DNA of 59,042 nucleotides, taken from a virus. Lineage: Duplodnaviria > Caudoviricetes. Both the position numbers and the translations under genes were made by a program. Of this stretch, positions 40,795-43,345 are shown piece after piece. The DNA is taken from IMG/VR virus record IMGVR_UViG_3300030110_001528, positions 1 through 59,042 of that record; one strand, written 5' to 3'. Numbering within the stretch: position 1 is the first letter of the stretch; each line of letters begins with the position of its first letter. The notes under the pieces are model-generated. The model made no database searches. It saw only the letters and a program-made list of their open reading frames with translations, and was not told the DNA's origin.

Positions 40795-40977
40795 TTGCAC
40801 CTCACTTTCTATAATGTGGGAAGTTTTGCGTCCTACGTACTTCCCAAACGTAGTCCTAACGCACATCGAGGTGTTGACGCTAGAGAACTAAAAATCTTAT
40901 ATTTACAGGGTACAATCATACACGGATATGTCAATTGCACCTTCTTACAGCCTTTAAAACAAGCCGTTTTTTACCAA

Positions 40978-41634
40978 AACAGCCTTAACTCACCCCAACT
41001 GAATTTAACTCAGCCAACCTCAACATATCGAAACCCAACTGCCTAAACATGACTAACAGCACCTCTCCCCAAAATAACACAACTCAACTCAACTGCCAAA
41101 ACCCAACCAAGCACATCTCAACATACAACACCTTAACTGCCTGAACTTAACTGATCTTATCGCACACCAACATGACATATCGCACCTCACCCCAACTGCC
41201 TCAACTCAACTCAACTGAACAAAACTTAGCTTACTCCACCCAAAGGAACCAAACCCAATCTTACACAACCCAAACTGCCGTAACATAACAGAACTTAACC
41301 AACCGAACACTACCCGACCCAGACGAAATGCACCATACCTCAACTGCCATACCGAAACGCAAGTTAACTCAACGCAACTCTCCTCACCTCAACATATCAA
41401 CGGAACTGCCTTAACCAAACTTAAATTAACTGACCCGAACTGACCCAAGCAAACCCAACCCCAACTGAACTGCCGAAACATAACTAAGCAAACCTCACCC
41501 CAACTCAACGCAACGCAACTGCCTTAACAAAACCTAACTGACCTGACCCCTCCTCAACACTACACACCAAAACAGGCTGACCACAACGCACTAAAACCTG
41601 CCTAAACATGACTAACAGCACCTCTCCCCAACTT
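40978..41634 (-). ncRNA. Pentamer-periodic guide-like RNA array: about 11 units of (NN-GNU)n-NN-GGCAGUU
   Basis: AACTGCC at 41037, 41091, 41135, 41194, 41273, 41342, 41404, 41468 and 41517, with variants at 40978, 41571 and 41595. Spacings are 5n+4 except one of 62. It lies downstream of a RAMP-like gene. Confidence 0.8.
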
Positions 41635-41962
41635 CTTCATTTCTTCTTCTATATGCTTTGGATTTACACCCATTATTTTTGTATTTTGTTCCATCCTTAA
41701 ATTTTGAGGAAGGATTAATTATAATACAATCGTGAGTGCAATTTTTTCCAGATGGTTCTCCATAAGTTTTTCTATACTCGCAAATCTTTGCTTTTATTTT
41801 TATGTTAGTTTTTATAGAGGTGTCATGTTTATGACCAACAAACTTTAAATTAATGTCAATAGGAACACTAATTAATTCACAACCATCTTCTTCTCTAGTT
41901 TCTTGTATTTCATGGTCAGAAATTAATTTATTTATTTCCTTTAAAATATTTTTATCCATCAT
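41612..41962 (-). CDS. Hypothetical protein between the partner gene and the array
   Basis: 116 aa, AT-rich, GGGAGAG RBS; its last codons lie in array sequence. Confidence 0.55.
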   Translation of the reverse strand: MMDKNILKEINKLISDHEIQETREEDGCELISVPIDINLKFVGHKHDTSIKTNIKIKAKICEYRKTYGEPSGKNCTHDCIIINPSSKFKDGTKYKNNGCKSKAYRRRNEEVGERCC

Positions 41963-42004
41963 TCACTCTCCCATTGATAAAATATGTGTCTTAATGAAGT
42001 GAGG

Positions 42005-42538
42005 CTATACAGCCTCACTCTTCACACTTTCTGATTCTAATGAGTCAGCAATTTCTGATAGTGAATCAATATCAATACCTTTTAAAGCACAGATACCATC
42101 ATGTCTATTAATCCATGCTCTTAATTCTCTACAGGCTTGACGACATAATTCAGCTACAACTTCTGGGTTGTTTAAATCAAATCTTTGATAGCCACCACCT
42201 TGAGCACGATTATCTATAGGTGAAATAAATGTAGGAAACCGAACAACTTTTTCATCTACAACTGTAATTGAGTCAGATATATCTATTGTTTCAGTCGGTA
42301 AATCCTTATATTGAAATGTAATTTTACAACCTGTAGCAAATTGTCTAGCTATTTGAATACGTTGCTTTAAAGCCATCTTTGCATCATCGTCAAAACCGAA
42401 CAATTTATAAACAGGATGATCTGGATTTCCTTGTAGCCAATCGACAAACTCGGCAGGAACATAACTGTTCCTGCCTGTCTGGTTAAGGTAATCGTTAATT
42501 ATTTTTTCACGATCCTTCTTACCAAATCTTTTTGCCAT
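42005..42538 (-). CDS. Partner protein of the RAMP-like gene
   Basis: PAEFVDW...PDHPVY..F.FDD...A..QRIQIARQ; start MAKRF at 42538, right after the upstream stop. Confidence 0.7.
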   Translation of the reverse strand: MAKRFGKKDREKIINDYLNQTGRNSYVPAEFVDWLQGNPDHPVYKLFGFDDDAKMALKQRIQIARQFATGCKITFQYKDLPTETIDISDSITVVDEKVVRFPTFISPIDNRAQGGGYQRFDLNNPEVVAELCRQACRELRAWINRHDGICALKGIDIDSLSEIADSLESESVKSEAV

Positions 42539-42539
42539 A

Positions 42540-43316
42540 CTATGCAACTTCCTTCAGAAGATCGGCTCTTTTAACTCTTTCTTCCTGCATTGCTTCGTAT
42601 AATTGATGGCTAGTATTATCATGTGACTCAATCTCTGGATTTTCCAAAGCAAGTTTCTGACAAGTAGCACCTTCTTCTTTGGTCAACTCATCCCAAAGTT
42701 TTTGGTCTGAAGTTTCCTTGAGTTTATAACCACCCATAGGACCACCTTTCTCTATTCTCCAATCACCAAGACCACATAAAGTTCCTGCATTAGTCAAAAG
42801 AGAAGTAATATTCAATTGACTAAAAGTAGGACTAATATATCGAATAGTAACCTCAGAACACCATCTAGGTAGTTTAGCTCTAGTGCGAATATCGGGAGTT
42901 CTATTTATATCAGAAGAACGAACCACAGACATATTCATATAAGGTTTACCCCAAATATTAATATGTTCACCTACAACGTAGATACCACGATTAATACCTG
43001 CTTTAGTAACACCTTCAGTTTCAAGGGCAGAAGTTGCCATACCTCTCTTGATACCTGTAGAAGGAAAACTAAGATAAGAACCATCTTGACCATTGATGTA
43101 ACAACTATCCACAAATTCTTCTTCGGGATTGTGCTTGATATCCTTCTTCTGTGCGGCTGTTTTTTTAGCGGCTCCCATAAACAACGTACTCATAGCCTTG
43201 AGTGACATTGAATTATAAATTAAAGGACCTGTACCAACAATCTTCAATTTTATTGTTGATTGCTTTAGTCTTTCAACAGTTAATCCTGTTGATTTAGTTT
43301 CTTTTTTAATTGGCAT
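42540..43316 (-). CDS. Stand-alone RAMP/Cas7-like RNA-binding protein
   Basis: KIVGTGPLI (beta1), FPSTGIKRGM (P..S.KG-type motif) and a Gly-rich loop GLGDWRIEKGGPMGGY. Confidence 0.75.
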   Translation of the reverse strand: MPIKKETKSTGLTVERLKQSTIKLKIVGTGPLIYNSMSLKAMSTLFMGAAKKTAAQKKDIKHNPEEEFVDSCYINGQDGSYLSFPSTGIKRGMATSALETEGVTKAGINRGIYVVGEHINIWGKPYMNMSVVRSSDINRTPDIRTRAKLPRWCSEVTIRYISPTFSQLNITSLLTNAGTLCGLGDWRIEKGGPMGGYKLKETSDQKLWDELTKEEGATCQKLALENPEIESHDNTSHQLYEAMQEERVKRADLLKEVA

Positions 43317-43345
43317 TTAACACCTCTCTTTCTTTAAAATTAAAG

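Follow-up and report, generated by a model that had tools for sequence, protein, structure and literature searches.

A likely VIPR system of a ~59-kb marine phage, with guides that probably include one against hsdM

Introduction

Do a gene for a Cas7-like protein and a nearby non-coding tract with a 5-nt period form an RNA-guided system in a phage genome and, if they do, what would the guides be directed against? This question is raised by a locus on the minus strand of the virus record IMGVR_UViG_3300030110_001528. The record, a single stretch of 59,042 bp (37% GC), is referred to here as the window. A reading made from the sequence alone (hereafter, the sequence-only reading) had proposed that a 258-aa RAMP/Cas7-like protein, a coupled partner gene, and a same-strand array constitute a system in which one subunit binds each pentamer and displays two variable bases for gapped target pairing. 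It had also pointed to the phage systems called VIPR (Viral Interference Programmable Repeat) as a parallel. Such systems are indeed in print (10.64898/2026.04.26.720920; 10.64898/2026.04.26.720927), and the 258-aa protein of the window proved to be a homolog of SUSP1 Vipr.

Vipr is described as a stand-alone RAMP protein, and its guides, the vrRNAs, as runs of pentamers consisting of a GGY triplet and a variable dinucleotide, NN (10.64898/2026.04.26.720920). In the system of Escherichia phage SUSP1, one protomer occupies each repeat, every third base of the double-stranded DNA is left out of the pairing, and the outcome is transcriptional silencing (10.64898/2026.04.26.720920; 10.64898/2026.04.26.720927). 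The natural targets given for VIPR systems comprise satellites, prophages, and other VIPR loci (10.64898/2026.04.26.720920; 10.64898/2026.04.26.720927); in the published SUSP1 and Pseudomonas fulva systems, the guides are directed at rival phages, satellites, or prophages. The text of the first preprint reports 667 VIPR systems, allows 'a related consensus' (NNNGG, YNNNG, NNNNG) and, in the legend of its fig. S18, mentions 'staggered arrays' of overlapping vrRNAs whose positions overlap by 1 nt (10.64898/2026.04.26.720920). Another preprint gives non-GGY or degenerate motifs for 21 of 99 period-5 clusters, and its text names GAC, CAC, WGT, and TGH (10.64898/2026.10.21.760802).

We conclude that the locus is very likely a VIPR system of a ~59-kb marine phage whose guides probably include one against hsdM. 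Because VIPR systems with staggered arrays and with non-GGY motifs were described in the 2026 preprints, the locus belongs to an already described kind, and it mainly extends VIPR to abundant marine phages.

Results

Homology of the 258-aa protein to SUSP1 Vipr

The gene at 42540–43316 on the minus strand encodes a stand-alone RAMP (Cas7-like) protein of 258 aa and is designated vipr on the basis of homology to SUSP1 Vipr and a Cas7-like model. SUSP1 Vipr was located in KT454805 between two pentamer-bearing intergenic regions, and BLASTP aligned it with the window protein over 186 columns (residues 22–191 of the window protein versus 4–183, almost the full length of SUSP1 Vipr) at an E value of 4e-8 and 23% identity. 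A profile of 31 relatives of the window protein matched the PDB chain 36pp_D, 'SUSP1 Vipr protein' (E 3e-5). The motif NAG.LCG.GDWR is common to the two proteins. The G-loop NAGTLCGLGDWRIEKGG is present in the 258-aa protein; RAMP fold features including the glycine-rich G-loop GLGDWRIEKGGPMGG were found in it, as was a C-terminal helical extension of ~60 aa that is absent from SUSP1 Vipr. Pfam gave no family for the protein, and its sole PHROG was phrog_4652, of unknown function.

The single-sequence AlphaFold model had a pLDDT of 36, and an alignment-based AF2 model was used instead (pLDDT 83.8, pTM 0.79). A Foldseek comparison of this model with the PDB returned 73 chains at E ≤ 0.001. The top ranks were all Csm3, Cmr, or type VII Cas7 chains, the best being 6xn3_F, 9g9k_I, and 9j9e_D1 (E 1e-5 to 2e-5). 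The RAMP/Cas7-like assignment of the sequence-only reading was thereby borne out by the fold matches as well as by the homology to SUSP1 Vipr.

According to the cryo-electron microscopy structure of the SUSP1 system, the GGY bases are held by D177, W178, and R179 of the G-loop, R138 of the thumb, and H17 (10.64898/2026.04.26.720927). In the alignment, these RNA contacts fall on D185, W186, R187, R146, and N35 of the window protein, respectively, and K33 falls on K52. R146, D185, R187, K52, and N35 were invariant in the 31 family members; W186 was not. By this alignment, the triplet-holding residues of SUSP1 appear to be kept in the window Vipr, with H17 swapped for the family-invariant N35.

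The array consists of G-N-U-N-N pentamers in units that overlap by 1 nt

The tract at 41640–40980 comprises 661 nt without a long open reading frame (ORF) and lies on the same strand as vipr. From its spacing and pentamer counts, it is described here as a staggered vrRNA array of 10–11 units of 8–15 G-N-U-N-N pentamers. GGCAGTT occurs 12 times in the window, and nine of these occurrences are within 41037–41523. Delimiters of the form GGCAG followed by T or G and then by T were found at 41602, 41523, 41474, 41410, 41348, 41279, 41200, 41141, 41097, and 41043; GGCAGGT at 41602 opens the set, and GGCTGTT at 40984 closes it. The spacings from 41602 to 40984 are 79, 49, 64, 62, 69, 79, 59, 44, 54, and 59. 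Nine of the ten are of the form 5n+4 (binomial p = 4e-6), and the exception, 62, comes from a unit in which 2 nt have slipped. GGCAG closes each unit, and its final G also serves as the opening base of the unit that follows. The 5n+4 spacing with a shared G therefore means that the units overlap by 1 nt, as in the published staggered arrays, and the register shifts by −1 at each boundary because the GGCAG pentamer overlaps the next unit by 1 nt.

These results reproduce the ORFs and delimiters reported by the sequence-only reading as well as its rule of 5n+4 spacings broken by one unit with a 2-nt deletion. Its list of spacings, which runs in the reverse order, agrees with ours except for the final '54 and 24', which correspond to the recomputed spacing of 79 when that is split at a degenerate GCCTGTT (54 + 25). 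This degenerate delimiter lies near 41577 within the first 79-nt unit, and the guides of the same family in relatives start just past the equivalent point. For these two reasons, the array probably opens with a 25-nt remnant unit, which is followed by a 54-nt unit.

Pentamers were cut from the last G of each delimiter, and the nine regular units yielded 104 of them. Position 1 is G in 89/104 (86%) and position 3 is T in 95/104 (91%). Position 2 is T in 56/104 (54%) and G in 36/104 (35%), and positions 4 and 5 are mixed in composition. The triplets were GTT (47), GGT (25), GAT (6), GCT (5), and TGT (5), close to the earlier counts by hand of about 43 GTT and 26 GGT out of about 100, and the earlier description as a GUU-rich variant is apt. 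The canonical GGY triplet was not found as a fixed motif, GGT accounting for only 25/104 pentamers versus 47/104 for GTT. The G-N-U, GUU-rich triplet is thus relaxed at position 2 relative to the canonical GGY. As the first preprint allows 'a related consensus', a non-GGY triplet is compatible with VIPR membership; the texts of the VIPR preprints, figure logos and type tables aside, do not list G-N-U as a motif. A pattern of three G[GTC]T.. pentamers in succession was found 38 times on the minus strand of the window, 33 of them inside 40980–41640, versus four times on the plus strand. The array strand contains 37% G, 38% T, and 8.5% C (75% G+T).

The variation at position 2 may be compared with that of residue 186 of Vipr (window 42759–42761), whose counterpart in SUSP1, W178, stacks on G2. 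Most of the family has W, F, or Y at this residue. Asn (GDNR) is found in two distinct tree branches, represented by loci L035, L038–L041, L044, and L045 (related loci are numbered with L), and well-supported branches force at least two origins, although the independent events are few. The Asn186 branches carry the most U-rich position 2 (57–84% T). Because the clade of the window keeps W with 47–62% T, Asn at 186 is dispensable for a U there. A protein that retains the G2-contact residues can go with U in the middle of the 'GGY' triplet, and such a relaxed position bears on the strictness of the RNA code and on the design of orthogonal Vipr/vrRNA pairs.

The boundaries were also compared in the window and 26 related arrays. 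The context is GTT-NN-GGCA-GTT (158 distinct boundaries in relatives). The pentamers flanking the GGCAG boundaries are GTT in 91–99%, though GGT is common elsewhere, and the base immediately 5' of the boundary is G in just 1% of the 158 distinct boundaries. This suggests that the boundary signal is wider than GGCAG.

Arrays and a partner gene accompany vipr homologs

We found 354 homologs of the window Vipr, mainly in seawater assemblies, Tara included. A same-strand period-5 array lies beside vipr in 51 of 55 IMG/VR loci, and the other four loci break off inside the gene or shortly past it. Homologs devoid of arrays, the outcome by which the sequence-only reading would have been refuted, were not encountered among the loci that run on beyond the gene. 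In 38 loci, the array is of the G-N-T type and lies on the strand of the gene, with none on the opposite strand by that pattern. In 13 further loci, G-period-5 arrays were detected under a looser pattern. Same-strand pentamer arrays are retained by homologs down to 28% identity. GC-rich relatives (36–41% identity) have canonical GGC-NN pentamers and GGCAGGC boundaries, and AT-rich clades use GTT-NN, with T at position 2 reaching 84% in L040. The 26 related arrays contain 218 spacings, of which 177 are 4 mod 5.

An array is also present in the Gordonia phage Ecliptus (L222, OP820472.1; 1492–2383). Gene 19, annotated as a 'hypothetical protein', encodes a Vipr homolog with ~30% identity. The 262-bp unannotated gap after it is filled with GGC/GGT-NN pentamers bounded by GGCAGG, and this array lies between genes for helix-turn-helix regulators and the tape-measure gene. 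Homologs annotated as hypothetical are also present in 25 Mycobacterium phage records and four more Gordonia phage records.

The units of the window were compared with those of relatives. No window unit was common to relatives as an exact string. When guides were compared as NN strings, 6 of the 10 window guides belonged to families kept in 3–24 related arrays, and the changes within the shared families were confined to single dinucleotides. Since the shared families differ at single dinucleotides, the arrays evolve by point variation of guides in addition to gain and loss.

The partner gene, vap-like and conserved beside vipr, occupies 42005–42538 on the minus strand and encodes 177 aa from an ATG at 42538, 2 nt past the vipr stop. 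This ATG is the likely start, although the ORF list gives a TTG at 42547 and a length of 180 aa. The partner adjoins vipr in relatives down to 28% identity, and its GGGY and W..R motifs are invariant. Searches of Pfam, PHROGs, PADLOC, PDB profiles, and a protein atlas gave no relative or function for the partner protein. The locus thus has the minimal VIPR layout, namely vipr and one conserved coupled partner gene with no cas families in ten neighboring ORFs. The gene order is vipr-vap-array in the clade of the window and vipr-array-vap in L028, L032, L033, L035, and L054; L046–L049 have a short array between vipr and vap and a second array after vap.

One guide matches hsdM with skipped wobble bases

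To decode the guides, one base was skipped after each NN dinucleotide (NN-x-NN-x). The guide unit at 41093–41044 on the minus strand, which has ten NN dinucleotides, matched hsdM at 20 of 20 specified bases. Its exact matches, three in viral contigs and 29 in genome contigs, were all in this one gene family. All 32 are in frame, and the skipped base is the wobble position. The dinucleotides spell codon positions 1 and 2 of the motif [ED]DVIG[ED]AY[IM]Y, which belongs to the best-conserved part of hsdM. The target gene encodes HsdM_N and N6_Mtase domains and, in genome G002, heads an hsdM-hsdS-hsdR operon. The site is 29 bp long and lies ~470 nt into the gene. When 78 guides of the clade were scored on five hsdM loci, four reached at least 0.9 with one skipped base, all of them versions of the hsdM guide, versus 0 of 78 with zero or two skipped bases.

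At least 17 of 27 arrays retain the hsdM guide, a count to which L001 and L019 add, and the guide is usually the last or next-to-last unit. One of its dinucleotides is variable: GT in nine loci and the window, CT in four loci, and AT in three. GT, AT, and CT represent Val, Ile/Met, and Leu codons, respectively. A scan of metagenomes that allowed these three variants gave at least 120 matches. Among the 120 listed, 105 passed a strict HsdM test (V 35, I 68, L 2) and 15 failed it; one of the latter is a truncated HsdM, and the rest lack the HsdM motif and resemble chance matches. The guide version of L001 has 11 NN dinucleotides, and the 39%-GC allele of genome G001 was the only one that it matched at all 22 bases. 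The genome collection contains just four members of one alphaproteobacterial order; three of these are G001–G003, and the fourth had no match to the hsdM guide at ≤3 mismatches.

By our estimate, a random gapped pattern of 20 bases is expected about once in 596 Gb, both strands included. Because one chance match is expected in 596 Gb, the expectation for an event with at least 29 matches is at most ~0.04; a third of that applies for the right frame, times the ~7 guides tried.

We therefore consider that hsdM, heading the type I restriction-modification (R-M) operons of an alphaproteobacterial lineage, is probably the target of this clade-wide guide. Because the wobble base is skipped, one guide would cover hsdM alleles of 38–69% GC with no synonymous escape. 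A more tentative proposal, about which we are rather doubtful, is that a lytic marine phage clade keeps the guide against the defence of its own host and shuts the hsdM-hsdS-hsdR operon, that is, RNA-guided anti-restriction. R-M modules carried by rival elements are an equally plausible target. No Vipr homolog was found in genomes G001–G003 or G006 and no tRNA gene in the window, and these searches thus gave no independent link to a host.

If the hsdM assignment is true, hsdM would be the first natural VIPR target to be a host defence gene and not a rival mobile element; the main texts of the VIPR preprints make no mention of host defence as a target class (10.64898/2026.04.26.720920; 10.64898/2026.04.26.720927; 10.64898/2026.10.21.760802). 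It would also mean that a wobble-skipping code is used against a protein motif across divergent alleles, and it would point to a candidate lineage of hosts for a phage that is uncultured.

It should be mentioned that the hsdM of G002 lies in a chromosomal defence island (L095, 2810–14410) with DUF2806, hsdS, hsdR, and a YgjP-like peptidase. Genes for DUF3800 and a ThsB-like TIR protein, as well as two more hsdS-like genes, are also part of the island. No integrase was found in the 20 kb of this locus that were analyzed.

Genomic setting and an inserted ORF

The genes vipr and vap, a 116-aa ORF, and the array are all on the minus strand. Upstream of vipr, a gap of 29 nt (43317–43345), which leaves no room for an upstream vrRNA, separates it from its neighbors, a Sak4-like AAA_24 ATPase gene and a gene for a 200-aa protein. 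Downstream of the array, a DEAD/ResIII helicase gene starts at 40866. The sole Cas-named match among the neighbors is a Cas4-domain recombination exonuclease (38743–37913), 2.3 kb away, which matches the phage recombination exonuclease family phrog_1990 at E 6e-71. Since the Sak4-like ATPase, the helicase, and the Cas4-domain exonuclease flank vipr-vap-array on one strand, the locus lies within a replication/recombination module. No cas1, cas2, cas5, cas6, or large subunit gene was found among the ten neighboring ORFs scanned, which agrees with the earlier statement that the locus is not CRISPR and has no linked cas1, cas2, or cas6. CRISPR repeats of 25–40 nt were not found, and the tandem-repeat and spacing analysis gave periods of 5, 10, and 14 only. 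Megablast with 12 kb of the window gave no match to GenBank phages, Rfam gave only a sub-threshold CPEB3 match, on the opposite strand, and scans for promoter and terminator signals were at chance level.

The Cys-rich 116-aa ORF (41962–41612), which did not figure in the sequence-only reading, lies between vap and the array and is absent from the ten relatives examined. The homology that the window shares with these relatives (L001–L003, L005–L009, L012, and L015) is lost at 41997 or 42024. In L001, it is regained precisely at 41631, and in the other nine at points deeper in the array. The last codons of the ORF overlap the first 34 nt of the array. A longest common substring search showed that the junction of the ORF and the array, 41598–41631 on the minus strand, exactly duplicates 34 nt from the 3' part of the hsdM guide and its delimiter, the second copy being at 41072–41039; the duplicate coincides with the point at which homology to L001 restarts. 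Because the 3' junction is such a duplicate, the final codons of the ORF are array sequence. Judged by these alignments, the 116-aa ORF is an insertion and lies outside the core system. Its homologs in a collection of 5.8 billion proteins formed only three clusters (80–92% identity), and no family was found beyond a PADLOC endonuclease match at E 0.015, too weak to use.

Discussion

The VIPR identity of the locus is supported by the homology of its RAMP protein, the retained RNA-contact residues, and the association of protein and array. By homology to SUSP1, the array would be transcribed and yield 10–11 short vrRNAs. We infer that one Vipr protomer sits on each pentamer, holding the G-N-U triplet and exposing the two variable bases for gapped pairing. 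The resulting filament would pair with double-stranded DNA, skipping every third base, and block transcription there. The units would be set off by the GGCAG that overlaps the next unit by 1 nt rather than by a structured tail. The likely purpose of the hsdM guide would be to repress the hsdM operon, or a rival element that carries an hsdM operon.

Several results weigh against this reading, above all against its target. A candidate target was found for only 1 of ~10 guides. No coherent target was obtained for the window guides in the window and the 55 flanking loci, and with 74–78 guides of the clade on the same 441 kb, a skip of one base performed no better than skips of 0, 2, or 4. In viral contigs, units 41196, 41344, 41275, and the 41039 family had 0 matches; a single match of unit 41470 was out of frame, failed on extension, and was taken as chance. 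Six guides had 0 matches at ≤2–3 mismatches in four genomes of the candidate host order, and the core of the commonest guide family (41196) had two matches in 401 Alphaproteobacteria versus two for the control. In the preprint texts, the 1-nt-skip rule is demonstrated for type II (SUSP1) systems only. The partner protein is unlike SUSP1 vap1 in sequence and has no recognizable domain. Moreover, transcriptional silencing of R-M genes would leave the enzyme already present when phage DNA enters; because the pre-made restriction enzyme persists in the cell, the benefit of hsdM silencing is unclear. As a separate candidate, a Roseovarius contig matched a related guide at 16/18 bases but the window's own version at only 15/24, and it was rejected.

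Given these results, the locus might be a VIPR system whose match to hsdM is a coincidence or a relic, the real targets being rival phages, satellites, or prophages of the host that are missing from the collections searched. Published work on VIPR names satellites, prophages, and other VIPR loci as targets, sampling of marine satellites and prophages is poor, and six other guides are without a target. One chance match of a 20-base gapped pattern is, moreover, what is expected in a genome collection of 596 Gb. However, coincidence does not readily account for 32 exact matches that all fall in one family and in the wobble-skip frame, for a guide kept in at least 17 of 27 arrays with a variation that tracks the natural Val/Ile/Leu alleles, or for an 11-NN variant that matches a low-GC allele perfectly over 22 bases. 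We regard this explanation as unlikely, though it is the alternative that we take most seriously.

The other two explanations question the VIPR identity itself. If the tract were a DNA-level replication element, such as an origin, iterons, or a recombination hotspot, the RAMP-like protein would serve another purpose; the tract does sit among Sak4-like, helicase, and Cas4-domain exonuclease genes, its strand asymmetry is strong (75% G+T on one strand), and promoter and terminator signals no better than chance would fit. Such an element would hardly travel with a vipr homolog into unrelated contexts such as that of Ecliptus, always on the strand of the gene, nor would it be expected to show the 3+2 fixed/variable pattern and the 1-nt-overlap boundaries of published vrRNA arrays beside a protein that retains the RNA-contact residues of SUSP1 Vipr, and we consider it very improbable. 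Still less probable, to the point of being nearly negligible, is a degenerate or minimal CRISPR-Cas remnant with a Cas7 gene and a decayed repeat-spacer array. The top fold matches are all CRISPR Cas7-family chains and a Cas4-domain gene lies 2.3 kb away, but that gene product belongs to a phage recombination exonuclease family, phrog_1990, and the nearest sequence relative of the RAMP protein is SUSP1 Vipr rather than any Cas7. The 5-nt period in place of CRISPR-length repeats and the lack of cas1, cas2, cas5, cas6, and a large subunit in the ten neighboring ORFs argue in the same direction. A VIPR system that probably includes an hsdM guide is the interpretation we prefer.

Comparison with known systems

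The locus resembles the SUSP1 type II VIPR system in its homologous RAMP protein, its two-gene phage locus, and its same-strand pentamers of a fixed triplet and NN, and one window guide fits the 1-nt-skip rule with the skipped base at wobble positions. It differs in several respects. SUSP1 vrRNAs are ~100 nt long, each with its own ~40-nt structured 3' tail, whereas the window units abut and are marked by GGCAG only. The triplet is G-N-U in the window (GUU more often than GGU) instead of GGY. The window Vipr is 63 aa longer at its C terminus, and N35 takes the place of H17. Its accessory protein bears no relation to vap1 of SUSP1, and the window has no upstream vrRNA.

Other VIPR types come closer in array structure. 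The overlap of 1 nt in the window is the same as that given, in the figure legend on which this comparison rests, for staggered arrays (10.64898/2026.04.26.720920). The formulas NNNGG, YNNNG, and NNNNG in the text of the same preprint do not literally describe the G-N-U-N-N of the window. Arrays beside Vipr-like folds with a non-GGY triplet, as in the window, are described in 10.64898/2026.10.21.760802, the text of which does not name G-N-U or GUU.

The Cas7 proteins Csm3, Cmr4, and type VII Cas7 share with the window Vipr an RRM core, a glycine-rich loop, and a thumb, and they polymerize on the guide RNA with one subunit per fixed step, as the window Vipr would. The Cas7 step is 6 nt with one base flipped, whereas the VIPR step is 5 nt with three guide bases sequestered. 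Unlike class 1 CRISPR systems, the window locus has no crRNA repeat handle, no Cas5, Cas6, or large subunit, and no adaptation module.

With respect to anti-restriction, Ocr and ArdA are DNA-mimic proteins that block the type I R-M enzyme at once. They act on the enzyme directly, whereas the hsdM guide, if functional, would repress transcription of the operon and would act on new synthesis only; the outcome, type I restriction disabled, would be the same and would be reached by a different route.

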